Shown here piece after piece: positions 41-34,558 of a DNA stretch of 64,000 bases. The stretch is from NCBI GenBank assembly GCA_038128845.1, contig JAYPKL010000001.1, positions 42,338 through 106,337 of the forward strand, in the 5' to 3' direction. The notes under the pieces are model-generated. The model was not told the DNA's origin, did not search any database, and saw nothing but the letters and a program-made list of their open reading frames with translations. Position 1 is the stretch's first letter; every line of letters starts with the position of its first letter. The stretch is from Candidatus Woesearchaeota archaeon (lineage in GTDB: Archaea; Nanobdellota; Nanobdellia; UBA10117; ARS21). The translations under genes and the position numbers were made by a program.

Positions 41-601
41 TTAAACAATGTTTTTGAAAGTTCCGCCAGTTGATGCTTGACCTGAAAAGTCAATATCGAA
101 ATAGAATAATGTTCCCACTGGATATGTTGTAACATTAATTAGACATCCTGATGTTAAATTCATAACCAATGTTTTCTTTGCAGATACGCCTAAATCTGTT
201 CCGAATCCTGAAACTGCTGCTGCGTCAGAGGAGGAATTTACATTTTGAGTAGAACAAATTAATGCTTGGTCTTTATCTTTAAGCAATAAAGTTGTTGTTG
301 GAGAAGATGATCCTGAATCCATAGGAATTGGTTGAGCTCCTACGTTTGAAATAACTAAAGTTAAATTGCCACCAGTTTCACTTGTTTCACCTTCATATTG
401 AGCTAAATCAACTAAAATTTGAGAATTAAGATATTCATTTAATGAATCTCCGAATTGTTCTGAACTACCTGTGAAAGATGATTGTAATCTAAGTACCCAG
501 AAAAATGCTGCACCTGCTGCTGCAACAGTCATCATCATTAAAAGAATAATTGCAATAATAGGTGTAATTCCTTTTTTGCTTTTTATTCTTAAAAACTTCA
601 T
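41..601 (-). CDS. archaeal type IV pilin-like protein with class III (prepilin) signal peptide
   Basis: N-terminus MKFLRIKSKKG|ITPIIAIILLMMMTVAAAGAAFFW: a short basic leader ending in KG, then a ~22-aa hydrophobic helix. It is a paralog of the 2993 and 3543 ORFs, sharing the N-terminus and the C-terminal FSG(K/Q)xxTGGxF motif. It carries many N-x-S/T sequons. Confidence 0.6.
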   Translation of the reverse strand: MKFLRIKSKKGITPIIAIILLMMMTVAAAGAAFFWVLRLQSSFTGSSEQFGDSLNEYLNSQILVDLAQYEGETSETGGNLTLVISNVGAQPIPMDSGSSSPTTTLLLKDKDQALICSTQNVNSSSDAAAVSGFGTDLGVSAKKTLVMNLTSGCLINVTTYPVGTLFYFDIDFSGQASTGGTFKNIV

Positions 602-819
602 TTTAATCTTCTAATTAATCTTGCAAGTAAAATTGCTACAACTAATAAAACGACACTTGAGAATGCTGTAAAGAATGTTGTTAAAGATATCCAGCTTAAT
701 TCATTTAAAGATACTGCTGTAGATGCTTGATTGATTAAATAAAGAACTGAAACAATCCATACAGTTAAAACTGCTAATAATCCGCCTTCAACAAAATCAG
801 GTTTATCTTGTCGTCTCAT
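598..819 (-). CDS. small two-TM membrane protein (hypothetical); 4-bp overlap with downstream pilin gene
   Basis: 73-aa ORF with two hydrophobic segments. ATGA-type overlap with 41..601 suggests co-transcription. Confidence 0.35.
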   Translation of the reverse strand: MRRQDKPDFVEGGLLAVLTVWIVSVLYLINQASTAVSLNELSWISLTTFFTAFSSVVLLVVAILLARLIRRLK

Positions 820-860
820 ATAAATTAATTGTTTTATTGTTTATATAGTTTTTTGAAAAA

Positions 861-2465
861 TTACATTTGGTCAGGTAATTCTTGTTTCATTTGCTTTGCT
901 GCAATAATATCATCAATTCTTAAAAGCATGATTGAAACATCACTTGCAGATGAAATTGCTTGTTTTTTTATTTTACTTGGTTCTATAACACCATTTTTCC
1001 ACATATCTTCAACTTTTCCGTTGTAAACATTTAATCCAAAATATACATTTTTACTATCATGTTTTGACTTTAATGAAGCCAAAGTATCAATTGGATCTAG
1101 ACCTGCATTTTCTGCAAGAGTTACTGGAATAACTTCTAAAGAATCTGCAAATGCTCTTATTGCTAATTGTTCTCTTCCCGAAAAAGAATCTGCGTATTTT
1201 CTAATTCCACTCGATAAAGCTAGTTCAACAGCTGCTCCGCCTGCAACTATTTTTCCTGTGGATAATGCCGCCGAAAGATCGCCAATAGCATCAGTTAATG
1301 CTCTTTCGATTTCAGAAACAACATGTTCACTTCCGCCTCTTACAAAAAGAGTAACGGACTTTGGATTATTACATTTTTCAACAAAAGTCATATGTTCTCC
1401 GGAAATTTTTCTTTCTTCAACTAATCCTGCAGAACCTAAATCTTCTTCTGAAATTTCTTTAATTGAAGTTAAAATTTTTGCACCAGTTGCTTTTACTAAT
1501 CTTTTCATATCTGATTCTTTCATTCTTCTAATCGCGAAAATATTATTTTTGGCAAGATAATGTTGAGCAACATCGTCAATACCTTTTTGACAAAATACTG
1601 CATTTGCTCCAGAATCGGTAATTCTTTGAACCATTTCTTTTAACATTCTTTCTTCTTGTTCAATAAATTCTTGAACTTGAAGCGGAGAAGTTATTTGAAT
1701 TTTTGCGTCAATTTCGGTATCTTTAACTTCGATTGGAGTGTCTAATAACAATACTTTTACATTTTTGATTAATCTAGGCATTGAAGTATGAACTCTTTCT
1801 TTATCGATAACTAAACCGTCGATTAATTCAGAATTTTCAGTATCAGAACCTGCCTTTTTTTCTATTTTAATATCGTTCAGATCTATAATAATTTGATTAT
1901 CTGTTTCTTCTGCAACTTTTTTGATAGCAGAAACTGACATGGACGCTAATTTTTTCTTAGTTTCTAATTCTACATTTTTACCAGTCATAGCAGTTATTGA
2001 AATTTGTTCTAAAAGTTTAGTATCTTTTATTAAAATTGGATTTGAAATTTTATTCAATATTTCTTGAGCTTTTCTGGCTGCAAGTTCATAACCTTTAGAA
2101 ATTACTGTGGGGTGGATATTTTTTTCAATAAGTTTTTCTGCATTATTTAATAATTCTCCTGCTAAAATTACTGCAGTAGTTGTACCGTCACCAACTTCTG
2201 ATTCCTGTACTTTTGCAACTTCAACTAACATTTTTGCAGCCGGATGTTGTACTTCCATTTCATCAAGAATTGTAACTCCGTCATTTGTTATAGTTACGTG
2301 GCCCGAAGAACTTACAATCATTTTATCCATTCCTTTTGGACCTAAGGTAGTTCTAACGGTATCAGCTAAAGCTTTAGCTGCAGCAATATTTGATTTTTGT
2401 GCATTTTTTCCAGAATCTCGAGTAGATCCTTCTGGTAAAATATAAATAGGTTGCATATTATTCAT
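861..2465 (-). CDS. ths: thermosome subunit (group II chaperonin, Cpn60/TCP-1 family)
   Basis: 534 aa. Has the [11 protein letters not shown] signature, a GDGTTT ATP-binding motif and the overall group II chaperonin architecture. Confidence 0.9.
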
Positions 2466-2539
2466 TTCAAATCTTAGTGAGTAAGATTTTTAAGAGGTAG
2501 TTTTAGCAAGAATTTTAATATAAAACAACAATATAATTT

Positions 2540-2962
2540 ATGAACGATGAATTCGAATTAATTTCGGTTAAAGAACTTAAAAATTTGAAAGAAGAGTTAA
2601 TTGAATTGAAGAAATCTCCTAAGATTAAATCAAATTCAAATAATCCTAAAGAATATGTCAATATATTTAATTCAATATCTCGAATTGAAAATAAATTTGA
2701 GATTACAATAAAAAATTTGAATAAAATGATGAATAAACTTGATAAAATAAGTTCTATTTTTGATTCAGATATTCAAACCGAAGAAGAAGATATTAACAAA
2801 TTAAATGAGTTAATTTCCAGGCTGGAAAACTTAGAAAAATCAAACAAAGAGCTATCCGATAAAACTGAATCATTGCATAATTCGATAAAAAGAAAATCTT
2901 ATTTCAATGAAAGATTTCCTAATGGATTATCATTAAAATATAAACGTACAAAAACTCTGTAA
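2540..2962 (+). CDS. hypothetical coiled-coil protein
   Basis: 140 aa, K/E/L/N-rich heptad-like sequence with no recognisable catalytic motif. Divergent from the thermosome gene. Confidence 0.4.
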   Translation: MNDEFELISVKELKNLKEELIELKKSPKIKSNSNNPKEYVNIFNSISRIENKFEITIKNLNKMMNKLDKISSIFDSDIQTEEEDINKLNELISRLENLEKSNKELSDKTESLHNSIKRKSYFNERFPNGLSLKYKRTKTL

Positions 2963-2992
2963 AACTTATATACTAAGATAAACATTTTTTTT

Positions 2993-3550
2993 ATGAGAAA
3001 AGGACTTACTCCAGTTATAGCTATGATATTACTTCTTATGATGACCGTAGCTGCAGCGGGTGCAAGTTTTTATTGGTTACTTGGTCTTCAGGGCGAGCTT
3101 CAGGGCGGAACTCAGCAATTTCAAGAGCAAACATTTGAAAGAATGACTTCCGATGTTCAGTGGATGAGTGCAAGTTTTGAAAGAAATGGGACTGGCGACG
3201 ATAATGGAACATTGATGTTAACTATTATGAACACTGGAACAACCAAAATACCAATAAATAATGGTACAACAAGTCCGAAGGTTCAATGGACATTATATGA
3301 TTCTGAGCAAGATTTCATCTGTACTTCAGACTGGTCAAATACTGCAGACATAGTTATTTGTAATAGTGGATGTACATCCGAATTAGCACTAAAGGAAGTA
3401 AGAACAATCAATTTAACCGTTGATGGCAATAATTCATGTAGTTTAAATTCAACTACGACTTATCCGGATGACACATTAATTTATGTTGATATATCCTTTA
3501 GTGGTAAAACCACAACATCAGGAACTTTCAGGGTGGATACCGATGATTAA
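2993..3550 (+). CDS. archaeal type IV pilin-like protein (class III signal peptide)
   Basis: MRKG|LTPVIAMILLLMMTVAAAGASFYW N-terminus. Paralog of 41..601 and 3543..4052. C-terminal FSGKTTTSGTF motif. Multiple N-glycosylation sequons (NGT, NNGT, NLT, NNS, NST). Confidence 0.6.
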   Translation: MRKGLTPVIAMILLLMMTVAAAGASFYWLLGLQGELQGGTQQFQEQTFERMTSDVQWMSASFERNGTGDDNGTLMLTIMNTGTTKIPINNGTTSPKVQWTLYDSEQDFICTSDWSNTADIVICNSGCTSELALKEVRTINLTVDGNNSCSLNSTTTYPDDTLIYVDISFSGKTTTSGTFRVDTDD

Positions 3551-4052
3551 TAAAAAGGGACTTACTCCAATAATAGCAGTAATATTATTGATGATGATGA
3601 CGGTTGCTGCAGCAGGTGCAGGATTTTTCTGGTTTGTTAGAATTCAAGGAGAATTACAATCTGGAGGGGAAAATTATGCAACAGATTTAGGTGAAACTAT
3701 AAATTCCAATCTATATGTGGTTAATTCAGAATATGATTCCGGGGATTTAAAATTAATCGTAAGAAATACTGGAGGAGTAAACATACCTGTAAATAAAGGT
3801 CTTGATTCGCCTACTACTTCGATAATTCTGAATCAAGGAGATGGTCAAGTAATTTGTAATACTTTCTTAGGAAGTACAATTGCTGAGTGTACAAAAGGTT
3901 GTGGGAATGACATACTTGTTGGTGAAACTCAGGAAATTAACATAGATCTATCGGGAGATTGTTCTCTTACAAGTTATTCTGAAGATACTAGCATTTCATT
4001 TTCTATGGACTTTTCTGGTAAAGCTGGCACAGGCGGAGAATTCAGATTATAA
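3543..4052 (+). CDS. archaeal type IV pilin-like protein (class III signal peptide)
   Basis: Start chosen at MINKKG|LTPIIAVILLMMMTVAAAGAGFFW (internal Met of track ORF 3483..4052). Overlaps the upstream pilin stop by 8 bp (ATGATTAA). C-terminal FSGKAGTGGEF motif. Confidence 0.6.
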   Translation: MINKKGLTPIIAVILLMMMTVAAAGAGFFWFVRIQGELQSGGENYATDLGETINSNLYVVNSEYDSGDLKLIVRNTGGVNIPVNKGLDSPTTSIILNQGDGQVICNTFLGSTIAECTKGCGNDILVGETQEINIDLSGDCSLTSYSEDTSISFSMDFSGKAGTGGEFRL

Positions 4053-4085
4053 TAAGAGTTATATTAAAAAAATTAATATATTTTT

Positions 4086-5981
4086 ATGAAGGGTATATCT
4101 GAAATATTATCTATAACAATTGTAACATTAATTACTTTAACTGTATTTTCAGGTTTTTTTTATTGGTATTCGAATATTTCGGAAGATTCTAAAATTGGTT
4201 CAGAAGATTACACTAAAGAAATACAAAGTCAAATAATTACAACTTCAAATAAAATAATAGATGACTTGTATGATGTTTCAAAGGAAAAAAACATTAACAA
4301 TTTTGGAGAATTAACCTATACTATTGAAGCAGAAGATGGTCCAATTTCAATAGATTCAGAAGATTCAAGTTTTTCTCTATATGAAGGATATGGTTCGAAT
4401 ACTGAACTAATTTGTTCAGATTTTGGTTTAAATTGTAATTGTGAAAATGAAATACAAAAAATCTTTGGAGTTTTAGTTAATAATGATACTACTAAAGGAA
4501 TATACTTTTTAGAATATGATTCGATTAATGGCTTTTCTGAAAAACAATTGAAAATTTTTGGAAATTCAAATAATATTAGAAGATGCGATATAAGATATTT
4601 TGATCAATTTGTTGAGGGCGGAAATGATTGTAATGAGCCTAAAAACTTACTTGCAACAGGTTATTGTACTGATGATGATTCTTTTTATGAAAAAGCCACA
4701 TTCGTTTTAGATTCAAATTTAGATGGTAGTTACTATGATCTTTATGATACTGGAGATTTAGAAAAAATATTTGATGTTCAATTTGTAAATGATATTTTAG
4801 TTGATGATACATATCATTTATTCTCTGGTGCTTTTACAGATTATTTCAATGATTCAAATTACAATAAACAAGTTCTGTCTTTTAGCGATTTGATTTACGG
4901 AGATTATGAAAATCTAGGTTCATTTGGATTACTTCCAACTGAAACAGGAAATGCTGGATTGGCAGTAACTGCGATGGAACTTGTTTATCGAAATAATTAT
5001 CCTGCTTTACTCTTCGGAACCAGTCACGAAGAAGCAACTATAACAGGTGGAGCATATTTGGCAATTTCAGATGAACCTGAAAATAATGCAATATTCCAGG
5101 GAAATTTTAGGGCTTTTACTTCAGGATTTGATTGTCCATATGATATGGGTACTTTCTTAAGTGCAGGATTTGATATAGCTAAAATTGCCAATTGCGATAT
5201 TGATTTTAACTCAGTAGTAGAAATTGTTAAAACCGACTTGGTTGAAGATACTTATATTGATTCAGATCCTGTTATTTTAGGTTTAAATGAAGTTACAGAT
5301 GGAATCACAACTTTACCGATTGCAGTATTTTTTACAGATTATAATTACACTTCAACAAGAATTTATAACTTAGATTTAAGTACACTTGGTTTACCGCTTG
5401 ATGTAAAAATTACTCATATGTTTTATGATGATTCAAATGATAGAGTTTTTATTTTACTTGAGTCGACTATTCCTGGTTCTTTAACTACTCAAGTTATTGT
5501 GATTGATCATAATTTTGTTACATTAACTCCTCATTTAATCGAATTGAGTGGTGCAATAGACCCAAGTCTTGATGTGGAAAGTTTTACTGTAATAAATAAC
5601 ACTTTATTTTTTGGAGGGAATTATAATGATGGTATGGGAACCAATCAATCGGAAATATATACTGCCGTATTTGATGAAGAAACATTTGGATTATCTTCCG
5701 TTAATAGAGTGTATAGTAACAATACATTTTACTCTGTTTCAAATTTAGTTACTTTGAATTTATGTGAAGAAAAATCTCCATATTTAGAAACGGAATGTGA
5801 TATAAAACGAGGAGAATCTTGTGAAATAATTTTAAATATTGAAGATACTGATTGTGATATATCGGATTATCCTTCTGAAACTCAATTTTCTTCAACTTTA
5901 ACATTTGGAAAAAATAAAATCTATGAAATATTTAAGAAAGGGAGTGATCCGAGCGAGGAAACGGATTTAGTAGTTGTATGA
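4086..5981 (+). CDS. large secreted or pilus-associated protein with pilin-like N-terminal helix
   Basis: 631 aa. N-terminus MKG|ISEILSITIVTLITLTVFSGFFYW (hydrophobic helix after a KG leader). Asp/Cys-rich body. First gene of an overlapping operon (stop overlaps the next start). Confidence 0.5.
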   Translation: MKGISEILSITIVTLITLTVFSGFFYWYSNISEDSKIGSEDYTKEIQSQIITTSNKIIDDLYDVSKEKNINNFGELTYTIEAEDGPISIDSEDSSFSLYEGYGSNTELICSDFGLNCNCENEIQKIFGVLVNNDTTKGIYFLEYDSINGFSEKQLKIFGNSNNIRRCDIRYFDQFVEGGNDCNEPKNLLATGYCTDDDSFYEKATFVLDSNLDGSYYDLYDTGDLEKIFDVQFVNDILVDDTYHLFSGAFTDYFNDSNYNKQVLSFSDLIYGDYENLGSFGLLPTETGNAGLAVTAMELVYRNNYPALLFGTSHEEATITGGAYLAISDEPENNAIFQGNFRAFTSGFDCPYDMGTFLSAGFDIAKIANCDIDFNSVVEIVKTDLVEDTYIDSDPVILGLNEVTDGITTLPIAVFFTDYNYTSTRIYNLDLSTLGLPLDVKITHMFYDDSNDRVFILLESTIPGSLTTQVIVIDHNFVTLTPHLIELSGAIDPSLDVESFTVINNTLFFGGNYNDGMGTNQSEIYTAVFDEETFGLSSVNRVYSNNTFYSVSNLVTLNLCEEKSPYLETECDIKRGESCEIILNIEDTDCDISDYPSETQFSSTLTFGKNKIYEIFKKGSDPSEETDLVVV

Positions 5982-6601
5982 AAGGACAATCTCAAGTTGT
6001 TGGATTTACAGTAATAACACTAATAATGCTATCTATAACTTCAATTGTATTTCTTTGGGCACAGCCATTAATAGAAAGATCTGTTGATTTTAACAACATA
6101 GATAGAATGGAAAATCAAATGATTAAACTAGATAATGCAATTAAAGAAGTTGCATATGATAAATCTCAAAAAAGTATTAAATTTCAAATAGATTCTGGAA
6201 ATTTAATTTGGGAAAGAAATAATACAATTAACTATTATTCCGATCAGAATTTGCCTTTTTCTTCCGGTGAAAAGATATTAGTTAAGGGAACTTTAATAGG
6301 ATCGGATAATACAACTGCAACAAGTCCGTGTTATAATACTTCAATAAATGGTAGTGTTGGATTGGATGAATCTTCTTGTCTATATAAACAAGGTTCAAAT
6401 TTTCAATTATATTATCCGGTTTTAAACGACACATCGGGAAATTGTTTTGCAATAAGAGTTATACCTGGTAAAAATGCAGGAACTTCGGAAGGTACATATA
6501 CAATAGAATTAAAGTATAATCAAACAATAACAACAGCATATTCTATTGACAATGGATGTTCAACAATTTACAAACCAGAAATAATATTTAATATAAAATG
6601 A
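5978..6601 (+). CDS. minor pilin-like protein
   Basis: MKG|QSQVVGFTVITLIMLSITSIVFLW N-terminus. 207 aa. ATGA overlap on both sides. Confidence 0.5.
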   Translation: MKGQSQVVGFTVITLIMLSITSIVFLWAQPLIERSVDFNNIDRMENQMIKLDNAIKEVAYDKSQKSIKFQIDSGNLIWERNNTINYYSDQNLPFSSGEKILVKGTLIGSDNTTATSPCYNTSINGSVGLDESSCLYKQGSNFQLYYPVLNDTSGNCFAIRVIPGKNAGTSEGTYTIELKYNQTITTAYSIDNGCSTIYKPEIIFNIK

Positions 6602-9318
6602 AGGGGCAAATAAATATAATATACATTGGAATTTTAACTTTAATTAGTATCGCAGTTTTTGGAACTATTTTAATTTGGAACTTTTCTGTAAGCGAATCAA
6701 CTTCAAATGAATTTAACGAAAAACAAATGGAAATAATTGCAACTCAAATATCTGAAGACATAAACTATTTATCTACTTTTGATAAAAATTCAGTTTATAC
6801 GATTAAAAAAGATTTACCATCGACTATTGGTGAAGATGATTATTGTATTAGATTAAATCAAGATGAATTGGGAAACAAAAGAATATATGTTTCTAAAAAG
6901 GGGAATTCACTATCTTATAACTCTTTCAAAAAAACGGATTTTTACATAGATTTCAATAATAAAGAGTTAAATTTTGAAAATTCAATATCTTGTGGCGGTA
7001 AAACAAATATTGTAAAAACTCAAAACTCAATTGAATTAACAACGTCATTAACTTCGGCAGCAACTATTGTTGACGCTCCTCCGACTATATCTACAATAAT
7101 AGATACTTCGACTAACGAAGACACTTCAAAAGATATTACTTTTACTGTTTCGGATGAAAATTTAGCTTCTTTAGCACTTTCTGCAATTTCTGGAAACACT
7201 ACTTTAGTTAATCAAACTGCAAACGGAGGATTAATTATCCCATCTGCGTCAGGATCTTCAAGAACTCTTACAATTAATCCAAATAATAATCAAAATGGAA
7301 TAGTGGAAATAAATATAACTGCAACGGACGGATCTTCTCAAACAGATATCGAATCATTTAATTTGACAATAAATTCTGTTGATGATGGTCCAACAACGCC
7401 AACCGTAATTTATTCGCCTTCTTCAAATAGAAAAGTTGGTGATTCCTTAACTTGTGTCGCATCAAGTACTGATCCGGAAGGAGACTCAATAAGTTATTCA
7501 TATCAATTTAGAAATGGTTCTGAATCTGGAACCATAATTCAAGATTTTAGTTCAGATAATACCATTGACTCTATTTCTGCAACTTATGCTCATGAAGCAA
7601 TTTATTGTATTGCTTATGCAACTTCAAATTCAATTGATTCTTCTAGCAGTATTGCAACTATTACTATCTCCAATACTGATCCGAGTTCTGCAAGTCTATC
7701 TTCCAATACAATTAATGAAGGATCTAGTCCGGGTACTGCTGTGGGTGCAATAACTTGTACTGATGTGGATAATGATGTTTGCAGTTATACAGAGTATGCA
7801 CCAGGTCATAACGGATCTTCCATATTTGAAATAAGCGGTACATCTATTGTTCTATCTAGTGGTCAAAATTTAGATTTTGAAACGGATAATAGTTATAATT
7901 ATTCTGTGCTAGTAGATGACGGTTTTGGGGGGGATATATATCAAGAATTTAACATATCTGTTACTGATATAAATGAGGTACCGACGGATATAACTCCTAA
8001 CTCATTAACTATAAATGAAAATTCTCCAATTAATAGTGAAGTTGGTACTTTAACAGTAACAGATTCGGATTCTGGAGATTCTCATACTTTTACTGAATTA
8101 ACGGGTGGAACGGGGGAATCTTATTTTAATATTAGTTCTTCTGGTGTTGTTGAAGTTGAAGAAAATTCAATACTCAATTATGAATCAGGAACAACAAGCT
8201 ATACTTACGAAGTTAGAGTTACTGATTCAGGTTCTTTAACTTATAATGAAATAATTACAATTAATATTTTGGATGTTAATGAAGCTCCAGTAACTTTCGA
8301 AGATTCATATTCAATGGATCAAGATACAACATTGAATATTATTGAATCGGAAGGTGTTCTTGCTAATGATACGGACCCAGATTCCGATACTTTAACTGCA
8401 ACTTTAGTTAATGATGTATCCACGGGATCGTTGAGTTTGGCTTCAGATGGTTCATTTACTTATACTCCGGTTATTGGATTTACAGGAACGGTTGAATTTA
8501 ATTATTCGGCAGGAGATGGAGGAATAAGTTCATTGCCCGAAAATGTAACCATTACTGTAAATGCTGTATCAAATAATGCGCCGGTTGCTTCAGCAGATTC
8601 AGCCGCAGTAAATGAAGACACAACTCTTTCCGATACATTGACTGCTGCAGATATAGATGGAGACTCATTGACTTTTTCCATAGTTTCACAAGCATCAAAC
8701 GGAGTAGCTACAATTACAAACTCGACAACTGGGGCTTTCAACTATGTTCCGGGCGCAAATTATAATGGAGCGGATTCATTTACTTTCAAAGCAAATGATG
8801 GAACAGATAATTCAAATACAGCTACATTTTCAATAACAATTAATTCGGTAAATGATGCTCCAATTTGGTCTCCAGTAATTCCTGATAAAACAGTGGGAGT
8901 TTCGGAATCCACTAACATAGATTTATTTACATATCATTTGGATGTTGACGGTAGTGATTTAGCAACAAGTTTTTCAATAAATTCAATATCTCCGCCATCG
9001 CCAGATTTTACTTGTAGTATAACTTCAGATCAATATCTTGATTGTATTTGGAATTCTGCTCCTCCCGCTCTGCCTCAACTATTTGATGTTACTGTTAATG
9101 CAGATGATGGAAATGGTGGAAGTGCTACGGATACGGTTGCTATAACAGTAGATCCTTCTGCAGGTGGAAGCTGTCAACCTATTCCTGATCCGAGTCTTTG
9201 TGATCCTACTTATGATCCTGAAGAGTATCCTGAAGCAAGTCATGATGGAAGAAGTTGTTATAGAAGTCAAGATGATTGTGATAACAGTGTATCTCCAATT
9301 GGAGCATATTTAGGATAA
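6598..9318 (+). CDS. pilin-headed adhesin with tandem cadherin-like repeats
   Basis: 906 aa. MKG|QINIIYIGILTLISIAVFGTILIW N-terminus. Body has ~100-aa repeats ending in D-x-N-(D/E)-x-P linkers (SVDDGP, TDINEVP, LDVNEAP, SVNDAP) typical of cadherin or VCBS-like domains. Cys-rich C-terminus. Confidence 0.6.
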   Translation: MKGQINIIYIGILTLISIAVFGTILIWNFSVSESTSNEFNEKQMEIIATQISEDINYLSTFDKNSVYTIKKDLPSTIGEDDYCIRLNQDELGNKRIYVSKKGNSLSYNSFKKTDFYIDFNNKELNFENSISCGGKTNIVKTQNSIELTTSLTSAATIVDAPPTISTIIDTSTNEDTSKDITFTVSDENLASLALSAISGNTTLVNQTANGGLIIPSASGSSRTLTINPNNNQNGIVEINITATDGSSQTDIESFNLTINSVDDGPTTPTVIYSPSSNRKVGDSLTCVASSTDPEGDSISYSYQFRNGSESGTIIQDFSSDNTIDSISATYAHEAIYCIAYATSNSIDSSSSIATITISNTDPSSASLSSNTINEGSSPGTAVGAITCTDVDNDVCSYTEYAPGHNGSSIFEISGTSIVLSSGQNLDFETDNSYNYSVLVDDGFGGDIYQEFNISVTDINEVPTDITPNSLTINENSPINSEVGTLTVTDSDSGDSHTFTELTGGTGESYFNISSSGVVEVEENSILNYESGTTSYTYEVRVTDSGSLTYNEIITINILDVNEAPVTFEDSYSMDQDTTLNIIESEGVLANDTDPDSDTLTATLVNDVSTGSLSLASDGSFTYTPVIGFTGTVEFNYSAGDGGISSLPENVTITVNAVSNNAPVASADSAAVNEDTTLSDTLTAADIDGDSLTFSIVSQASNGVATITNSTTGAFNYVPGANYNGADSFTFKANDGTDNSNTATFSITINSVNDAPIWSPVIPDKTVGVSESTNIDLFTYHLDVDGSDLATSFSINSISPPSPDFTCSITSDQYLDCIWNSAPPALPQLFDVTVNADDGNGGSATDTVAITVDPSAGGSCQPIPDPSLCDPTYDPEEYPEASHDGRSCYRSQDDCDNSVSPIGAYLG

Positions 9319-9355
9319 CTAAAAAAACATATATAATAAAATAACAATAATAAAT

Positions 9356-11035
9356 ATGTTAAATAAGAGGGCAATCCGACTTTTAAATAAATATAAGAAT
9401 AATAATTCAAATATCAATAAAAAAGAGATTTTACAGAATAATTCTAACATAAAAATTGATGAAGAAGTTGAAACAAAACTAAAAGTAAAATTACCGCAAG
9501 ATCACATTTCACATAAGTCTGCAGAAGAAAATATATTGGAAGAATTAAGAAATGTTAATGAAAATTATCCTTTGATTACGGCAAATATAAATAATCAAAC
9601 TATAATTCTTGCAAGTGCCCATATTTATTTTGATGATGAAAATCAAACTCTGAAGTATAATGTAATTGAGCCAAAATTAAATGAATATATGCATGAGATT
9701 ATAAACAGAACAATTGAAGAATTACATGAGAATTTAGATTTAGAATTTGAAAATCTAAAAAATAAAGATGAAATTCAAAAATATTTACATAAAAAAATTG
9801 AAGATATATGGAATAAAATGAATTTACAACCATCGCCAGAAAATTCAATGATCTTGAAGTACTATACTGTGAGACAAGTTTCTGGATTGGAAATAATTGA
9901 TGCCATAATGCAAGATCCGAATATTGAAGATATATCTTGTGATGGGATAGGAATGCCTATTTTCATATTTCATAGAAATCCAGTTTATGGTGAAATGTCA
10001 ACCAATATTTCATTTAATTCTAAACAAGACTTAGATTCTTTTTGTATGAGACTTGCACAGAAGGCAAAAAGATCAATATCGGTTGCAAATCCGTTAATGG
10101 ATGGATCTTTAGAAGATGGATCAAGAGTACAAATTACTTATGGTACCGATATTTCCAGAAGAGGAAGTAATTTTACAATAAGAAAATTTTTCAAAAATCC
10201 CCTTAGTCCAATTGACTTAATGAAATTTGAAACAGTTGATGCAATAACTTTAGCTTACTTATGGTATGCAATTGAAATGGAAAAATCAATTCTAGTTGCA
10301 GGTTCAACTGCATCAGGTAAAACTACTTTCTTAAATTCAATTTCATTATTTATAAGGCCAAATGATAAAATTGTTTCAATTGAAGATACTTCTGAACTTC
10401 AAATACCTCGCGCTAATTGGATTCCTCAAGTAACTCGAACCGGTTTTGGTCCTGAAAAATATGGTGAAATCGATATGCACAATCTTCTAAAATCTTCTTT
10501 AAGACAAAGACCCGATTATTTAATTGTTGGAGAAGTTCGAGGTGTGGAAGCTGAAGTATTATTTCAGGCCATGGCTACAGGTCATCCGGGCTTATCTACA
10601 ATCCATGCAGACAATGTAGCGGCAGTAATAGATCGTTTGAGTACGCCTCCAATTCAATTGCCATTATCTGTACTTCAAAATTTGGATATTATTGTTTTCT
10701 TAGAAAAAATGAAGAAGGAAGGTAAATTTTTTAGAAAACTTAAGAAAGTAGTAGAAGTTGAAGGTTTTGATGCAAAGAATAAAGAACTAAAAATTAATGA
10801 TGCGATTGTATATGATCCAAAAACAAATCAATTAACTAAAAATGAAAGTTTTATTTTATCCACAATAGCTGAGTCAAATGCAAAAAATCATGAACATGTT
10901 CTGGATGAAATAATGAGAAGATCTAATATTTTGAAATGGATGTATGAAAAGGAGATTACTAGATTTGAGGAAGTTAACAAAATAATTACTACTTATTACG
11001 CCAATCCTGAATCAGTATTAAATATGATAAAATGA
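9356..11035 (+). CDS. type IV pilus/archaellum assembly ATPase (FlaI/PilB/TadA, VirB11-like family)
   Basis: Walker A VAGSTASGKTTFLNS, Walker B/Asp box DYLIVGEVRG, downstream His box TGHPG. 559 aa with an N-terminal extension typical of archaeal FlaI-like ATPases. Confidence 0.85.
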   Translation: MLNKRAIRLLNKYKNNNSNINKKEILQNNSNIKIDEEVETKLKVKLPQDHISHKSAEENILEELRNVNENYPLITANINNQTIILASAHIYFDDENQTLKYNVIEPKLNEYMHEIINRTIEELHENLDLEFENLKNKDEIQKYLHKKIEDIWNKMNLQPSPENSMILKYYTVRQVSGLEIIDAIMQDPNIEDISCDGIGMPIFIFHRNPVYGEMSTNISFNSKQDLDSFCMRLAQKAKRSISVANPLMDGSLEDGSRVQITYGTDISRRGSNFTIRKFFKNPLSPIDLMKFETVDAITLAYLWYAIEMEKSILVAGSTASGKTTFLNSISLFIRPNDKIVSIEDTSELQIPRANWIPQVTRTGFGPEKYGEIDMHNLLKSSLRQRPDYLIVGEVRGVEAEVLFQAMATGHPGLSTIHADNVAAVIDRLSTPPIQLPLSVLQNLDIIVFLEKMKKEGKFFRKLKKVVEVEGFDAKNKELKINDAIVYDPKTNQLTKNESFILSTIAESNAKNHEHVLDEIMRRSNILKWMYEKEITRFEEVNKIITTYYANPESVLNMIK

Positions 11036-11901: not shown

Positions 11902-13028
11902 AAGAACTAAAGAAACAAAAAAAATTATATTATACTCTACTGGCTCTGCCATTGCCTCTAATTTTGGGAGCTTTGGCTTTTGTATTTGGTGCATCTTCAA
12001 CATTTGCAATAGCTTTGATATCAATTGGGTTAATACTTGTTGTTCTTCCTTCAATGATTTTATCTTTTTTAGAATTTAGAGATATTAAATCTTCGGAAGA
12101 TAATTTTCCAAATTTTCTTGACGATTTGTCTCAATCTTCTTCTGCAGGGATGAATCTACCTCAGGCAATTTCGGTTGCAAGTAAAACTAGCTATGGTAAA
12201 TTGACTTCCCACATCAAACAATTGAATATATGGTTAACTTGGAACATGGCATTCCCGGCCGCATGGAAAAAATTTACAAAAAGATTGGATGCAAGTCCGC
12301 TTATAAGAAGAGTTAATGGTATAATTATTGAAGCGTTTAATGGAGGCGGAGACGTGAATAAAACTCTTGGATCTTTAGCTGCCGATGTTAATATAATAAA
12401 AGATATGGAGGCAGAAAGAAGATCAATAATGCAACAGCAAATAGTAATTATGTATATTATTTTCTTTGTATTTATTGGAGTAATCATCGCATTATACAAA
12501 ATTCTTTCTCCAATACTTTATGTTCAACAGATTGGTTCGTTTTCTGGAATTGGAATTCAAGGTTCTGGAACATTATCTATCGAATACTTTAGAAATTTAT
12601 TTTTTGTAATGACTTTAGTTGAGGCAGTTTGTGCAGGTCTAATTGCAGGTCAAATTGCGGAAGAAAAATTAGTTGCAGGAGTAAAACATATTGTAATAAT
12701 GACTGCAAGTACAATTTTAATTTTCTTTATTTTTGTATTTCCTACAACACTTTCCGTAGACATATCTGTTTATCCGAGTCAAACATTTACGGAAGGAAAA
12801 GTTACTTTTACAGGAAAAGCTTTTTCAGAGGGAGCTCCGGTAACGGGAGCAGATGTAACTATAATTGATTATGATAATACAATAATAAATTTATTTACGG
12901 ATAATGCAGGAGAATTTAGATATGTTTGGAACGCTCCTGAAGTACCGGGAAATTATACTGTCGGTTTAACAATTGAACATGAGGGGGAAGTTAAGAGCTT
13001 TAGACGAAGTATCTTTGTAGAAAATTGA
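11889..13028 (+). CDS. pilus platform membrane protein, C-terminal half (TadC/FlaJ-like) with C-terminal beta-sandwich extension
   Basis: 379 aa with multiple TM helices, then a soluble C-terminal ~90 aa (GKVTFTGKAF...VTGADVTIIDYDNTIINLFTDNAGEFRY...PGNYTV) resembling a carboxypeptidase-regulatory or Ig-like fold. Confidence 0.5.
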   Translation: MVRIEELKKQKKLYYTLLALPLPLILGALAFVFGASSTFAIALISIGLILVVLPSMILSFLEFRDIKSSEDNFPNFLDDLSQSSSAGMNLPQAISVASKTSYGKLTSHIKQLNIWLTWNMAFPAAWKKFTKRLDASPLIRRVNGIIIEAFNGGGDVNKTLGSLAADVNIIKDMEAERRSIMQQQIVIMYIIFFVFIGVIIALYKILSPILYVQQIGSFSGIGIQGSGTLSIEYFRNLFFVMTLVEAVCAGLIAGQIAEEKLVAGVKHIVIMTASTILIFFIFVFPTTLSVDISVYPSQTFTEGKVTFTGKAFSEGAPVTGADVTIIDYDNTIINLFTDNAGEFRYVWNAPEVPGNYTVGLTIEHEGEVKSFRRSIFVEN

Positions 13029-14080
13029 AAAAAGGGTATGCAGTAGGTGAATTTATTTTAGTATCATTTTTTTTTCTAATTTTAGTTGTTTTAATTATTA
13101 ACAGATTTACAGATTATACTTTGATTGAATTAAATAAATTTGAAGATTATCAAGAATGTGAAAATTCAATAAAAAATTTTGAGAAACTATTTGATGACGA
13201 ATTAGTAATGACTGCAAATTCAAATTTAAGTTCAATTATATCCAATTATACTTCTGAGGGAAATAACATCTCTATATTAAATTCCAATATTACTCAATTG
13301 GGATTTTCATCTGGGAAAAATAAACTAAATTATACCAGTTTAAATTTAATTTTTAATAATTTAAGAATATTTGATTGGAATGAATATGAAAATTCATATG
13401 ATAGTTTTTCAATAAATGTTGAACCGTATGCAGTTAATGTTGAATCTATTTATTCCGATGAGTCGAATATAACCGGATTCTATGGTGAAACTAGAGCGAA
13501 TATTTGGTTAAATGATTCGGTTACAAATTCGAACACAGTTCATTATACAATAGGATTAAGTGCATATGAAACTTCGGGCTACGATTCTATTTTTGAATTT
13601 GTTATTTTAATTCCAAATGCCACAGTATTGGGTTCATTAGATCCCGGATTGTCTAATTCTGGTTCTAATTCTCAATATCTGAAAATTAGTGGTTCAATTG
13701 AACCAAATACAAGCAGGGAAACAGTATATTTTTCATATTCTTCAGATACAACAAATTATATTGGATGGGGAGACGATTATGCAAACTATGGTTTAAATTA
13801 TGAAGAGATACAAAATATTACTAAAAAAAATAATCTAATTATTTTTGATAAAATAAAATTTTATGATCAAGAAACTAAAAAGGAATTAGACATAGTTTTT
13901 GGAAACAATACAAATTTAAATTTAAATTGGGGTCCGGAAAATGCAGAAGGTTGTAAATATAGTAGAATATATTTAATTGAAGATGATTCAAAAAGAATTA
14001 ATTACACAATAAACGGATTCGTTAAAGAAATAAATATTAATCCGAAAATTTATTCAAAGATTGAGGTTGTATCGAGATGA
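13025..14080 (+). CDS. minor pilin-like protein
   Basis: MKKG|YAVGEFILVSFFFLILVVLIINRF: KG leader, hydrophobic helix and Glu at about +6 as in type IV prepilins. N-x-S/T rich. Overlapping starts. Confidence 0.45.
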   Translation: MKKGYAVGEFILVSFFFLILVVLIINRFTDYTLIELNKFEDYQECENSIKNFEKLFDDELVMTANSNLSSIISNYTSEGNNISILNSNITQLGFSSGKNKLNYTSLNLIFNNLRIFDWNEYENSYDSFSINVEPYAVNVESIYSDESNITGFYGETRANIWLNDSVTNSNTVHYTIGLSAYETSGYDSIFEFVILIPNATVLGSLDPGLSNSGSNSQYLKISGSIEPNTSRETVYFSYSSDTTNYIGWGDDYANYGLNYEEIQNITKKNNLIIFDKIKFYDQETKKELDIVFGNNTNLNLNWGPENAEGCKYSRIYLIEDDSKRINYTINGFVKEININPKIYSKIEVVSR

Positions 14081-14463
14081 ATAAGAAAGGATATGTTTAT
14101 TTTATTGAAATTATTTTATCTTTAATATTTGTAGTTTTTTTATTTTTTTCTTTGAAACCGAGCACTGCGGAATACGAGTATGATGATAAATTTTCACAAG
14201 ATATTCTGTATATTTTATATTATCAAGATTTGATAAAATATGATCTTAATGATACTAATTCATTTGAGAGTTATGTAAATAATAGTATAGTCGGTCTTAT
14301 TGGATATACAAAAGATTTTGAAATTAATTATAATCTTGATGAAACTTCTTTTAGTGGTAACTCGAATAAAGTAAATAGTGATTTATCCAATGGATATATT
14401 CATTCTAAAAATTTGAATAATAATTGGTATACAATAAACCTGTATACTTGGAGTAAATTATGA
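14077..14463 (+). CDS. minor pilin-like protein
   Basis: MNKKG|YVYFIEIILSLIFVVFLFFSL N-terminus. 128 aa. Confidence 0.45.
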   Translation: MNKKGYVYFIEIILSLIFVVFLFFSLKPSTAEYEYDDKFSQDILYILYYQDLIKYDLNDTNSFESYVNNSIVGLIGYTKDFEINYNLDETSFSGNSNKVNSDLSNGYIHSKNLNNNWYTINLYTWSKL

Positions 14464-15089
14464 GAGGTCAATTTTTCTTAATAGGCATAATTGTTACTGC
14501 AGTAATATTATTGCTATCTCTAAATGTTTTATCCTCGAATGAAAAAATATTTTTATCAGACGATAAGGAAAAGTATTTTGATAATTTTAACTTTGCATAT
14601 GAATATTCGATTCCAGGAAATTGGGAATATTTTGATGAAGCGTATCGCAGCACAATTGGAATATGTATAAATCCGTCCAATCAAAGTATGACAAATTGGT
14701 GGAATACTTCTATTAAGTTAAATAGCGAAAATGATTGTGTTTTTACCTCAGAAAACTATCATGTGACGCAGGGTAATGAGTGTACTTTATTTATCAATGC
14801 ATCAAACTTATCTTCTTATTTAGATTCAGATACTAATTGTGGTAATTTTATTTTCTATTACAATTCGACTTCGGGTATTGAAGAAAGTAATGCGTCACAA
14901 GGAACAACTGGATTGAATATATCTTTGGTTTCAGAAGAATCAATTACTAATTCGCCTATAAATTCTTCAATAAATATAACTAAATTTTACTTAGAAAAAA
15001 ATATTCTGGTAGATGAGACTGCTTATTCTTCTGGTACATACACTATAAATTATAGTTCTGAAAACTTAGATTTTGAAGGAACAATTTAG
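14460..15089 (+). CDS. minor pilin-like protein
   Basis: MRG|QFFLIGIIVTAVILLLSLNVL N-terminus. 209 aa, many N-glycosylation sequons. Last gene of the operon. Confidence 0.45.
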   Translation: MRGQFFLIGIIVTAVILLLSLNVLSSNEKIFLSDDKEKYFDNFNFAYEYSIPGNWEYFDEAYRSTIGICINPSNQSMTNWWNTSIKLNSENDCVFTSENYHVTQGNECTLFINASNLSSYLDSDTNCGNFIFYYNSTSGIEESNASQGTTGLNISLVSEESITNSPINSSINITKFYLEKNILVDETAYSSGTYTINYSSENLDFEGTI

Positions 15090-21608: not shown

Positions 21609-24098
21609 ATGAGCGAAGAATATATTGATTTTACAAAACAAATTGAATTTTTTAAAAATAAGATTACAAAAATTAAAAATTATAAAAATTTAGAATATAT
21701 GATTTTAGGATCAATTATGCTTTTTGCGTTTTATTTGAGAACGTTGAATTTGAAATTACTTCAAGGTAAATATTTGTTGGGTTTGGATCCATATTATTAT
21801 TTGAGACAATCTACTGAAATCTTAACTTATGGGAAATTGCCGTTTCCCGATTTGATGCGAAATGCTCCTTTCGGTATAGAAAAAAGTTTTGATTTGTTTC
21901 CTTATTTTTTAGCATATTTATCTAAATTTTTTGGATTGTTTGGATTTACTGTCACTGAAACGCACATTTTATATCCTTCAATTATAATGGTATTGTCTTT
22001 AATTCCGTTATATTTTGCAATTAAATTAATATTTGATAAGAATATTGCATTATTATCGGTATTTATTTTAAGTATACTTCCAGCATATTTATTTCGTACA
22101 ATGTCCGGTTTCTCAGATCATGAGTCAATATCTATGTTTTTCATCTTCTTGACATTCTATTTTTTAATTAAGTCTGAAAAAGAATCAAAAAATAAAGGGT
22201 ATATATTTTCGAGTTTGGCTGGATTTTGTACGTTTTTGATGGCCATATTATGGAATGCTTATCCATTTTTATTTATTATTATTGGAAGTTATTATCTGCT
22301 GCAGCTTTTTTTCTCAAAGATAGATTACAAAAAATATTTGATTTTCTTTATATCCTTACTTATTCCGTTTATTTTATTTAAACCGATCAACTTTGGAGAT
22401 ATAGGCCTATTATATTTAATTTTAATTTCTCTGGTTATTTTATTAAATGAAAAATTTAATTTTGAGAAAAGAATAAATATTCCGAATATTGTTTCAACTT
22501 TAATTATTTTGTTTTTTATGAGTATTATATTTATAATTTTCTCGGACATAATTTCAATTTCTGAAATTATGAACAAACTTTTGAATGCGGGCGGAGTTGC
22601 TAAAGTAGATTTTACTACTTCTGAAGCAATATCAACGAAAGTTATGGGATCGAATGGTTATTATTCTCAGTTTAATGAATTTATATTCATAAGTTTTATT
22701 GGTTTTATATTTTTATTAAATAATATATTTTCAAAACTCAATAAAAAGGAGAATATTATTCTCACCAGCATATTCTCATTATCCGTAGGTTTAGTTATTT
22801 TTGGTAATTGGAATTCTAATATTATTTTGATGAAAGACAATTATATTTATTTCTTATTTGCAATTTTTATATTATTTAATCTATATTACTCGCAAATATA
22901 TCGTAGAAAAGACCATCATAAAATAAATAAAATTAAAAATCCGGAAATTTTATTGTTTGTTTCATATTTTTTAATTTCAGGTTTACTTGCTCGAACGGCT
23001 GTAAGATTTTTATTTTTAATGAGTCCAATAGTTGCAATACTTTCCGGTTATGCGATTAATAAAATTTATATTAAACTAAAAAAGAATAAAATTTATTCTC
23101 TTGGATTAATTATAATTTTTGCAATACTTGCAGCAGGTTCAATTAACCAGTCAATATTAATGGGTAAATCTATGGGAAGTAATTTTCCTGGTCAATGGGA
23201 AACTTCTATGAATTGGATTTCAGATAATATAGAAGAAGATGCAATTTTTGCTCATTGGTGGGATTACGGATATTGGACTCAATATGCGGGGAAAAAGGCA
23301 ACGGTCAGCGACGGAGGAAGAGCAGGAGGAGATTTGGGAATATATACTTTGGCAAGATACGGTATGTTGGGATCTGATGAACAGGAAACATTATCTTATT
23401 TTAAATCAAGAAATGTAGAATATCTTTTGTATTCTGAAGAAGAATTATATAAGTATGGTGCATTTTCATATATTGGTTCTGATATTAACAACGATAAAAA
23501 GTCAAACATAGGTATGTTTATATTAACAGATATTAAAGAAATCAGAGAAGGAAATAAATTAACTTACTCGGGAAATTGGATATTAGATTCTGATATAATT
23601 GAAGGAAATAAATTAATTAATGAAGGTGCAGCTGCAATAAATAAAATCTCATTAAATTTAGACTATGAAGGAAATTTAATTGGTGAACCGAAACTAAATC
23701 TAATTTCAAAAAATTTCCAAAAAGAATATGATCTAGGTTGTGTGTATTTTAATGGAATTAAAATATTAAATAATGATAAACCTCTAAATTATTGCATAAC
23801 TTTAATACCTTCTATAAGCGCAAATGGTGCAACTCAAGAACTGGGTGCAATACTTTTGCAATCAAATAAAGTACATGGTACTTTATTTTCTGAATTATAT
23901 ATAAACGATAAAAAAACTTCAAATTACGTAAAAGTTTATCAAGACAATACTCCTTTGGCAATGTATAACGGAAGATTAATTGGTCCAATAAAAATTTGGA
24001 AAATTAATTATACGGGTAATGAAAATAATTTTGATAGATTTTTAGAACAAGGAGTCCATGAAAAATATTATCCAAATAACGGAATATATAGCATTTAA
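21609..24098 (+). CDS. aglB: archaeal oligosaccharyltransferase AglB (STT3 family)
   Basis: 829 aa. About 13 N-terminal TM helices, then a soluble domain containing the diagnostic WWDYG motif (FAHWWDYGYWTQY). Confidence 0.85.
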   Translation: MSEEYIDFTKQIEFFKNKITKIKNYKNLEYMILGSIMLFAFYLRTLNLKLLQGKYLLGLDPYYYLRQSTEILTYGKLPFPDLMRNAPFGIEKSFDLFPYFLAYLSKFFGLFGFTVTETHILYPSIIMVLSLIPLYFAIKLIFDKNIALLSVFILSILPAYLFRTMSGFSDHESISMFFIFLTFYFLIKSEKESKNKGYIFSSLAGFCTFLMAILWNAYPFLFIIIGSYYLLQLFFSKIDYKKYLIFFISLLIPFILFKPINFGDIGLLYLILISLVILLNEKFNFEKRINIPNIVSTLIILFFMSIIFIIFSDIISISEIMNKLLNAGGVAKVDFTTSEAISTKVMGSNGYYSQFNEFIFISFIGFIFLLNNIFSKLNKKENIILTSIFSLSVGLVIFGNWNSNIILMKDNYIYFLFAIFILFNLYYSQIYRRKDHHKINKIKNPEILLFVSYFLISGLLARTAVRFLFLMSPIVAILSGYAINKIYIKLKKNKIYSLGLIIIFAILAAGSINQSILMGKSMGSNFPGQWETSMNWISDNIEEDAIFAHWWDYGYWTQYAGKKATVSDGGRAGGDLGIYTLARYGMLGSDEQETLSYFKSRNVEYLLYSEEELYKYGAFSYIGSDINNDKKSNIGMFILTDIKEIREGNKLTYSGNWILDSDIIEGNKLINEGAAAINKISLNLDYEGNLIGEPKLNLISKNFQKEYDLGCVYFNGIKILNNDKPLNYCITLIPSISANGATQELGAILLQSNKVHGTLFSELYINDKKTSNYVKVYQDNTPLAMYNGRLIGPIKIWKINYTGNENNFDRFLEQGVHEKYYPNNGIYSI

Positions 24099-29913: not shown

Positions 29914-29936
29914 TACCCCTTTGTTTCCTATGGAAA
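29914..29936 (-). promoter_or_regulatory. ORB-like element, copy 2 (identical 23-mer; 83-bp spacing; direct repeat)
   Basis: Identical to 29831..29853. Contains the TAG stop (minus strand) of the Cas4-like gene within its TCCTATGG core. Confidence 0.5.
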
Positions 29937-34060: not shown

Positions 34061-34098
34061 ATTGGTATTTTTTTATCAGTAGTTTTTAAAAATCATTA

Positions 34099-34428
34099 TT
34101 GAAAAATATACATATGAGAGGTAGACCTACGTTTAGTCCAATAAGAAATAATTTAGTTGAATTAATTTATTTTATGGGTAGTTCATATGGCTATGATATA
34201 TATAAAAAGTATATTGAAATTTTTCCAAAAACAACTATGCGTTCAATTTATTATCATTTAAATAAAGGATCCAAATTAGGTGTATTTGTAGTTTCTAAAG
34301 TCGAAGAAGTAAAGGGCGATTATTCTTGGGGCATTGGCGTAAGAAGAGTAAATTTCAAATTAGGTCCTAATGCTCAACCTAAAAAAGATTTGATGATTTT
34401 GAAAAAATTAAAATCAATTAAAAAATAA
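34099..34428 (+). CDS. small hypothetical protein, possible winged-helix DNA-binding protein, abutting oriC
   Basis: 109 aa. Basic, with an HTH-like segment (GYDIYKKYIEIFPKTTMRSIYYHLNKG). The stop is 2 nt before the left ORB. Confidence 0.35.
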   Translation: MKNIHMRGRPTFSPIRNNLVELIYFMGSSYGYDIYKKYIEIFPKTTMRSIYYHLNKGSKLGVFVVSKVEEVKGDYSWGIGVRRVNFKLGPNAQPKKDLMILKKLKSIKK

Positions 34429-34430
34429 CT

Positions 34431-34456: not shown

Positions 34457-34558
34457 TTATTTTATTTATTATAATTTTATAATAAAATATATTAATTAAT
34501 TACTATATTGAAAATAAATAAAATAAAAAATTTTTTTGATATATTATATACAATATAA

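Follow-up and report, generated by a model that had tools for sequence, protein, structure and literature searches.

Three archaellin-like pilin paralogues in a probable adhesion-type type IV pilus locus of a marine Woesearchaeota archaeon

A stretch of 64,000 nt from the genome of a Candidatus Woesearchaeota archaeon (assembly GCA_038128845.1, contig JAYPKL010000001.1, positions 42,338 to 106,337), referred to below as the window, begins with three related genes, designated P1, P2 and P3, each encoding a small protein with a prepilin-type N-terminus. Judged by its gene content, the region 2540–15089 (~12.5 kb) is a complete type IV pilus locus; an earlier note on this DNA covered just the first 4 kb of it and overlooked a fourth member of the pilin family, M1. 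The genes and their assignments are listed in Table 1.

The three open reading frames (ORFs) were found at the positions and on the strands given in the earlier note. The start of P3 at 3543 is backed by homologues and by the NCBI gene call of 169 aa; the mechanical ORF list had 3483. The genes P2 and P3 overlap by 8 bp, ATGATTAA, as had been described, and a stop/start overlap of the tandem pair is kept among relatives, where it measures 4 bp in the loci L001 and L004. The coupling of P1, on the opposite strand, to a gene for a small protein was also seen: the ATG of P1 overlaps the stop codon of a 73-aa ORF, the product of which has two hydrophobic segments. No family match was found for this 73-aa protein in the Pfam and NCBIfam scans; its homologues adjoin thermosome or pilin genes in many loci of Woese- and Pacearchaeota. 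The gene of the thermosome, a group II chaperonin, lies between P1 and P2 and is thus flanked by pilin genes, in agreement with the earlier description.

P1, P2 and P3 are pairwise 40–43% identical from end to end, and 48 columns of their alignment are invariant. The hidden Markov model (HMM) of the family recognizes them with E-values from 1e-63 to 7e-80 and has just one weak match elsewhere in the window, to the next gene, M1. The similarity is far beyond chance and marks the three proteins as true paralogues. The leader of P1 is MKFLRIKSKKG, followed by ITPIIAIILLMMMTVAAAGAAFFW, and that of P2 is MRKG, followed by LTPVIAMILLLMMTVAAAGASFYW. The three proteins share the N-terminal stretch (I/L)TP(V/I)IAxILL(L/M)MMTVAAAGAxF(F/Y)W and a C-terminal strand FSG(K/Q)...G.F(K/R), and each has a single hydrophobic segment, which is N-terminal. 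Four conserved cysteines are present in P2 and four in P3, and only two in P1. The prepilin-type motif proposed earlier holds for the family, with RKG in place of KKG in P2; the proposed C-terminal motif is only approximate, P2 reading FSGKTTTSGTFR and P3 reading FSGKAGTGGEFR.

Table 1. Genes of the pilus locus and associated genes in the 64-kb window
Feature	Coordinates	Strand	Assignment and evidence
P1, pilin paralogue	41..601	-	186 aa; TIGR02537 33.6 bits; PF01917 31.0 bits; family HMM E 1.2e-63
73-aa protein	598..819	-	two hydrophobic segments (8-33, 41-73); stop overlaps P1 start by 4 bp (ATGA)
Thermosome (group II chaperonin)	861..2465	-	Cpn60_TCP1 590 bits
cc140, soluble coiled-coil-like protein, directly upstream of P2	2540..2962	+	140 aa; only weak matches, all to coiled-coil families
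P2, gene 1 of the tandem pair	2993..3550	+	185 aa; PF01917 35.4 bits; TIGR02537 34.9 bits; NCBI MEK9789215.1 identical
P3, gene 2 of the tandem pair	3543..4052	+	169 aa; TIGR02537 31.0 bits; family HMM E 4e-64; NCBI MEK9789216.1 identical
M1, fourth family member	4086..5981	+	631 aa; family profile in two pieces; UpsB N-terminus E 1e-5
M2, pilin-like	5978..6601	+	207 aa; MKG, then QSQVVGFTVITLIMLSITSIVFLW; weak ComGD and DUF7289 matches
M3	6598..9318	+	906 aa; MKG, then QINIIYIGILTLISIAVFGTILIW; Big_9 152 bits; Cadherin_4 134; Cadherin_5 97; tandem-95 repeat 140
Assembly ATPase, secretion-ATPase superfamily	9356..11035	+	559 aa; T2SSE 120 bits
Platform protein F1	11032-11901	+	289 aa; one T2SSF domain; aligns to N-terminal half of ArlJ/FlaJ
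Platform protein F2	11889-13028	+	379 aa; one T2SSF domain; aligns to C-terminal half of ArlJ/FlaJ
N1, N2 and N3, pilin-like	13025..15089	+	351, 128 and 209 aa; K/R-G motif and single hydrophobic N-terminal segment
AglB/STT3 oligosaccharyltransferase	21609..24098	+	829 aa; STT3 68.8 bits; STT3-PglB_core; archaeo_STT3 112 bits; WWDYG at 550-554
Candidate prepilin (class III signal) peptidase	57036..57809	-	257 aa; Peptidase_A24 32.2 bits, cut-off 26.5; Asp in IDLYKYEIPD and GGGD

The pilin identity suggested in the earlier note was borne out by profile searches. All three proteins pass the cut-off of 20 bits of the NCBIfam model TIGR02537 (archaellin/type IV pilin N-terminal domain) with 31–35 bits. 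The Pfam model PF01917 (Arch_flagellin), with a gathering score of 29.5, is exceeded just barely by P1 and P2, and P3 has no Pfam match. The Pfam model Pilin_N was dropped as a classifier, since P2, with only 14 bits, stays under its cut-off of 25. The N-termini of P1–P3 have the (S/T)PVIA form known from Iho670 and Pilin_N. Among solved structures, the best sequence match to the family profile is an archaeal type IV pilus (AT4P) of the flagellar-like kind, and it is weak (E 2e-4, profile positions 5–98). P2 and P3, which also occur in Tara Oceans data, are named archaellin/type IV pilin N-terminal domain proteins by NCBI. Full-length relatives of the family occur only in metagenome-assembled genomes (MAGs) of Woese-, Pace- and Nanoarchaeia, and the N-terminal helix alone is recognizable DPANN-wide; when 1.84 billion representatives were searched exhaustively with the profile, 32 clusters reached E <= 1e-30 and 382 reached E <= 1e-10.

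An AlphaFold2 (AF2) model of P2 was built on an alignment of 37 sequences. The model, with a predicted local distance difference test score (pLDDT) of 77, consists of an N-terminal helix (residues 5–47) and an eight-stranded beta-sandwich; its confidence is moderate overall and low (53–69) at residues 20–50, so that the length of the helix is uncertain. Foldseek comparison of the model with the PDB gave FlaG (5tuh), archaellins of H. salinarum, FlaF (4zbh), the pilus of P. arsenaticum and the archaellin of A. pernix, with E-values from 3e-5 to 2e-3 and template modeling (TM) scores of just 0.4–0.65. Together, the TIGR02537 matches and the fold matches place P1–P3 in the archaeal type IV pilin/archaellin superfamily.

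The first of these structural matches are the soluble domains of FlaG and FlaF, and weak matches of the pilins to the NCBIfam models of ArlF and ArlG were also obtained (E 1e-2 to 1e-3), so the possibility has to be considered that P1–P3 are not filament subunits at all. The ArlF/ArlG scores are, however, 15–20 bits against cut-offs of 110, and the archaellin fold is common to FlaF and FlaG, so that the fold matches cannot separate these proteins from archaellins. Moreover, the genes head the pilus assembly cluster, the usual place of a major pilin, their products carry the canonical K-G motif for cleavage, and there is no other small protein that would qualify as the major pilin. A non-filament role of P1–P3 is thus highly improbable.

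The tandem pilin genes are followed by genes of further pilin-like proteins and of the assembly machinery. Six proteins of the cluster in addition to P1–P3, namely M1, M2, M3, N1, N2 and N3, combine a K/R-G motif with a hydrophobic N-terminus. M2 is the most widely conserved minor component, encoded upstream of the ATPase gene in most loci of Woese-, Pace- and Nanoarchaeia examined; with tblastn it had matches in most of these loci (about L001–L042) and in L068, and most DPANN loci at a greater distance gave none. M3, in which a class-III-like N-terminus precedes cadherin-like/Big_9 repeats, may be an adhesin carried on the pilus. The protein at the position of M3 in L004 has just 152 aa, and a large PKD/cadherin protein is encoded elsewhere in L004; the adhesin repeats of M3 therefore appear to be fused onto a minor pilin. 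HMM scans gave no family matches for N1–N3, the orthologues of which are only 25–33% identical in relatives.

The assembly ATPase matches PilB3_C with 24.8 bits, under the cut-off of 27. The platform is split into two genes, since F1 and F2 match the N- and C-terminal halves of ArlJ/TadC, respectively. The gene of the A24 peptidase lies ~42 kb from the pilus locus. Accordingly, the presence of the A24 peptidase, the ATPase with its platform and AglB in the window shows that machinery assigned to processing, assembly and N-glycosylation is encoded near the pilin genes.

The same machinery bears on whether P1–P3 are archaellins (ArlB/FlaB) and the locus builds a rotating swimming archaellum, possibly a reduced one. 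In favor of an archaellum, P1 and P2 exceed the gathering score of PF01917, the best NCBIfam match of the ATPase is the FlaI model, and both platform halves match ArlJ models best; relatives of the pilins are named ‘flagellin-like protein’ by JGI, and papers on Woesearchaeota annotate flaB, flaH, flaI, flaJ and flaK. The helix predicted for the N-terminus is long and polar in its second half, a feature that Kreutzberger et al. describe for flagellar-like pilins and archaellins. The text of their paper gives no absolute lengths and the P2 model is weak at residues 20–50, so helix length was not used to discriminate between pilus and archaellum. The FlaI match is 408 bits against an equivalog cut-off of 550, and among solved structures the ATPase is nearer to GspE of A. 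fulgidus (2oap, 366 bits) than to FlaI of S. acidocaldarius (281 bits). The platform resides in two half-length genes, with scores of 94 and 46 bits against ArlJ cut-offs of 400–570. All archaella have seven core components (Makarova 2016), yet no match to ArlF, ArlG, ArlH, ArlC/D/E or ArlX was found in the locus or in the 64-kb window. On the side of the subunits, the lack of a PF01917 match in P3 and the (S/T)PVIA-type N-terminus, like that of Iho670 and Pilin_N, argue against archaellins, as do the six pilin- or adhesin-like proteins of the cluster, which are typical for adhesion pili. An archaellum is therefore improbable.

A KaiC/RecA-like gene at 47003-47695, the only such gene in the window, was considered as a candidate ArlH and rejected, because its product matches Rad51 with 96 bits and KaiC with 45 bits and is of the RadB type.

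According to the earlier note, the central regions of all three pilins are full of N-x-S/T sequons; this holds for the lineages of P2 and P1 but not for that of P3. P2 contains six sequons (3.2 per 100 aa; P = 0.015 in composition shuffles) and P1 contains four (2.2 per 100 aa; P = 0.10), against a window-wide background of 0.93 per 100 aa; P3 contains none. In the P2-type clade the mean is 4.2 sequons, 2.0 times the expectation from composition, whereas the P3-type clade, with a mean of 0.8 (range 0–2) and an observed/expected ratio of 0.41, is depleted. The ratios of the two types differ with p = 2e-6 in a Mann–Whitney test that treats related sequences as independent and makes no correction for shared ancestry. 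The highest sequon densities in the window belong to N1 and N3, encoded downstream of the platform genes, with 12 and 10 sequons (3.4 and 4.8 per 100 aa), respectively. The gene of the oligosaccharyltransferase AglB opens an N-glycosylation gene cluster extending to 29040, which continues with genes of a family 2 glycosyltransferase (GT2), a small membrane protein, a methyltransferase, an NAD-dependent epimerase, a UDP-sugar dehydrogenase and a family 1 glycosyltransferase (GT1).

In a neighbor-joining tree of 57 family members, the paralogues of the tandem pair fall into position-linked groups that recur across genomes. The first genes of the pair form the P2-type group, with that of L001, a more distant locus, on a separate branch; the second genes form a P3-type clade of their own. 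P1 of the window pairs with the thermosome-side copy of L004, and the upstream copy of L001 groups with other sequences. The tree thus points to old, conserved orthologous groups, and a functional specialization of old paralogues is plausible.

Sequence comparison with L007, a relative with ~80% DNA identity to the window over this region, revealed strong purifying selection on P2 (93% protein identity, dN/dS 0.037) and P3 (91%, dN/dS 0.044). For cc140 the values are 81% and 0.08, for the N-terminal module of M1 72% and 0.19, and for the insert of M1 36% and 0.64; all dN/dS values are rough, because dS (1.4–1.8) is close to saturation. With respect to L004, the identity is 65% for P2, 71% for P3 and 68% for the cytoplasmic ATPase, compared with 38% for P1 and ~30–35% for M1, M3 and N1–N3. 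P1 is the fastest-evolving of the three pilins, with an identity of merely 38–60% between orthologues.

The earlier note regarded the pilins as antigenically or functionally diversified. Antigenic or phase variation would mean that P1–P3 are interchangeable major pilins giving hypervariable glycosylated surfaces. The strong divergence of the central regions of the paralogues is in line with this, as are the fast evolution of P1, the duplication of its gene in L009, the flips in orientation of its module among close relatives and the six partly redundant PilA pilins of H. volcanii. The orientation of the two-gene unit of P1 and the 73-aa protein relative to the thermosome is indeed opposite in the window and L009 to that in L004, L010, L012 and L016; the search for flanking inverted repeats gave only short AT-rich matches of 73–81%, which leaves an invertible P1 module unsupported, with no convincing inverted repeats around it. 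The paralogues are ancient, each belonging to a conserved orthologous clade, P2 and P3, with dN/dS of about 0.04, are as conserved as the cytoplasmic ATPase, and P3 is free of sequons in a sequon-depleted clade. The truly variable parts of the locus are the insert of M1, M3 and N1–N3. The antigenic part of the earlier claim is thus not upheld and is quite improbable. The conservation of P2 and P3 and the purifying selection on them suggest instead that the tandem pilins form a conserved shaft.

The contig of L007 (CAJWSY010000072.1), 2.8 kb long and carrying the 93%-identical pilin pair, comes from a Tara Oceans run. Its MAG bears the label ‘uncultured Chloroflexi bacterium’, almost certainly through mis-binning of a contig of Woesearchaeota.

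Two collinear segments of M1 are matched by the family profile, residues 2–111 by positions 7–110 and residues 569–608 by positions 126–168. M1 is therefore a pilin of the P1–P3 family with an insert of ~455 aa in a variable Cys-bounded loop. Similar long proteins with two profile-matching stretches were met repeatedly among the results of the exhaustive search. No other part of the locus varies as much as the insert; the next-best database homologue of M1 is only 40% identical. A fragment of M1 is present in NCBI as MEK9774458.1 of a Candidatus Woesearchaeota archaeon. An AF2 model of the insert based on eight sequences was poor (pLDDT 53), and all of its Foldseek matches were beta-propellers, with TM-scores of 0.2–0.3 and root-mean-square deviations above 10 Å; they give a hint that the insert may be a beta-propeller and M1 a propeller-type adhesin.

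The same architecture was found by a synteny scan in loci of Woese-, Pace-, Parv-, Nanohalo- and Asbonarchaeal genomes. In the Nanohaloarchaeal locus L069, the order is thermosome, coiled-coil protein, small membrane protein with two hydrophobic segments, pilin, pilin-like proteins, ATPase, two platform genes and pilin-like proteins. In 25 of the 27 informative DPANN loci, including Parv-, Nanohalo- and Asbonarchaeal ones, the thermosome gene is found no more than 12 kb upstream of the gene of the pilus ATPase; in the sub-lineage of the window, it is inverted relative to the pilus genes. It is a conserved neighbor of the locus rather than a demonstrated pilus component. The protein cc140, which has no hydrophobic segment, is kept at the same position in relatives with 30–81% identity and occupies the place of the coiled-coil proteins in DPANN loci. 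The idea that cc140 and the 73-aa protein are deep homologues of their counterparts in L069 was rejected, as BLASTP gave an E-value of 0.49 for the former and no alignment for the latter, so that only positional equivalence can be claimed.

In a more distant lineage of Woesearchaeota (L001–L003, L018 and L019), the pilin genes adjoin the thermosome gene and a helicase gene, and the genes of the ATPase and platform are absent there; they must therefore reside elsewhere in these genomes.

Hamm et al. 2024 (Nat Commun, PMC11291902) described two type IV pilus loci that are conserved in the cluster-2 DPANN, to which the archaeon of the window belongs. Locus 1 of that study, reported in Woese-, Pace-, Nano-, Nanohalo- and Aenigmarchaeota, comprises a CpaF-like ATPase, TadC, FlaF/PilA-like filament proteins, coiled-coil proteins and ‘GroEL (chaperonin)’; a structural likeness to the sigma-1 attachment protein of reovirus is a feature of its coiled-coil protein. 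The window contains the genes of an ATPase, a TadC-like platform, filament proteins, a coiled-coil protein and a chaperonin at 861-13028, and its locus is this already published Locus 1. The linkage with the thermosome, already seen in Fig. 4 of Hamm et al., is accordingly not a new finding. Unlike the window, the account in the available text, centered on Nanohaloarchaeota and coiled-coil proteins, does not describe the three-paralogue set, the pair of sequon-rich and sequon-poor pilins or M1.

Among characterized systems, the locus shares with the euryarchaeal adhesion pili (clade 2 of Makarova 2016; PilA1-6 and PilB3/PilC3 of H. volcanii) several PilA-type paralogues, the (S/T)PVI-type N-terminus, a conserved minor pilin encoded next to the ATPase gene and, as is often the case there, a pair of tadC-like genes. 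The N-glycosylation of pilins and a role in adhesion, both predicted for the window, are further points of likeness, as are a near-threshold PilB3_C match of the ATPase and its nearest solved structure of the A. fulgidus GspE type. Unlike these pili, the pilins of the window are sub-threshold for Pilin_N and just above the threshold for Arch_flagellin.

An archaellin-like subunit and a locus without the stator genes ArlF/G are common to the window and to the flagellar-like AT4P of the P. calidifontis type (2023, PMC10334743), as are the potential for an intramolecular disulfide and N-glycosylation, the latter predicted for the window. The locus of that pilus has a KaiC/FlaH-like ATPase, and its filament a 10-strand packing without supercoiling; no KaiC-like gene was seen in the locus of the window. 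P1–P3 agree with archaellins (ArlA/ArlB, PF01917) in superfamily, fold and class III signal peptide; the differences from an archaellum lie in the missing ArlF/G/H/CDE/X, the split platform, the ATPase score under the FlaI cut-off and the failure of P3 in PF01917. The Epd pili, or type IV filament (TFF) ‘system 1’, of Methanococcus maripaludis, a system reported in some DPANN, likewise have a two-gene platform and many clustered pilin-like genes. Their pilins, however, are of ~70 aa without a globular domain, whereas those of the window have 169–186 aa with a beta-sandwich, and their locus usually includes a dedicated EppA peptidase with nine transmembrane segments, whereas the only A24 peptidase of the window is encoded ~42 kb away.

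Taken together, it is likely that P1–P3 are subunits of an adhesion-type archaeal type IV pilus with archaellin-like subunits in a marine Woesearchaeota archaeon (DPANN). Several of the points given above weigh against this reading: the PF01917 threshold exceeded by P1 and P2, the FlaI and ArlJ models as best matches of the ATPase and platform halves, the sub-threshold Pilin_N score of P2, the limited confidence of the P2 model, the relatedness of the sequences in the sequon test and the near-saturated dS. In addition, the cleavage and glycosylation of P1–P3, the formation and composition of the filament and its function are predicted from sequence, P2 is a candidate for the major, glycosylated pilin, and the 64-kb window is the only part of the genome analyzed.

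In such an adhesion pilus, the A24 peptidase would most likely remove the short basic leader by cleavage after K-G, leaving a mature (I/L)TP(V/I)IA N-terminus, and the hydrophobic N-terminal helix would serve first as a membrane anchor and later as the filament core. The T2SSE ATPase on its two-gene platform would extract the subunits from the membrane and build the shaft from P2, either alone or together with P3. P2 and P3, produced from one translationally coupled unit, are the putative conserved core subunits. AglB presumably N-glycosylates the exposed sequons of P2 and P1, and P2 would be exposed at the surface. P3, kept sequon-poor, may co-polymerize as a partner or, at low abundance, act in priming or near the tip. 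P1, produced with the small membrane protein from a separate two-gene unit, would be an alternative, faster-evolving pilin, and M1, M3 and N1–N3 are likely to be the variable parts for adhesion and recognition of a host or surface. The filament most likely serves to attach the cell to a host or surface rather than to swim.

A filament of two archaellins is formed in Methanocaldococcus villosus. Two paralogous subunits encoded side by side, as in the window, are also found in the heteropolymeric type IV pilus of Streptococcus sanguinis (PMC10628169). By analogy with these two-subunit filaments, P2 and P3 may co-polymerize. It is a more speculative and on the whole unlikely idea that P2 and P3 are obligate partners in a fixed ratio and that M1 is a fast-evolving or exchanged tip module for host recognition. 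If so, the filament would have a design of ‘constant shaft, variable tip’, setting host specificity in episymbiotic archaea.

Representatives of DPANN are tiny and mostly host-dependent, and type IV pili are leading candidates for the means by which they find and hold a host. Woesearchaeota ‘flaB’ transcripts were among the ten most expressed genes in a metatranscriptome study of a lake. The window provides a clean and complete example of the conserved pilus locus in Woesearchaeota. The known picture of this published locus is unchanged by it and is refined in three points, namely the conserved P2/P3 shaft, the one coupled subunit kept free of sequons and the concentration of variability in large pilin-like proteins.

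Several features of the window lie outside the pilus locus. Genes of replication are located at 29928-37194 and encode a Cas4-like nuclease, a protein of 1147 aa, probably the large subunit of PolD, Orc1/Cdc6 and the small subunit of PolD. An extremely AT-rich spacer of ~220 bp (34430-34650) is present upstream of orc1/cdc6, and the cumulative GC skew has its peak near 30 kb; only low-complexity repeats were found. A replication origin may lie here. A tRNA, probably intron-containing, was recognized by Rfam across 104 nt at 62296-62399 (61 bits) and was not reported by ARAGORN. A presenilin-type signal-peptide peptidase (PF06550) is encoded at 37224-37976 and represents a second intramembrane aspartyl protease of the window beside the A24 peptidase.

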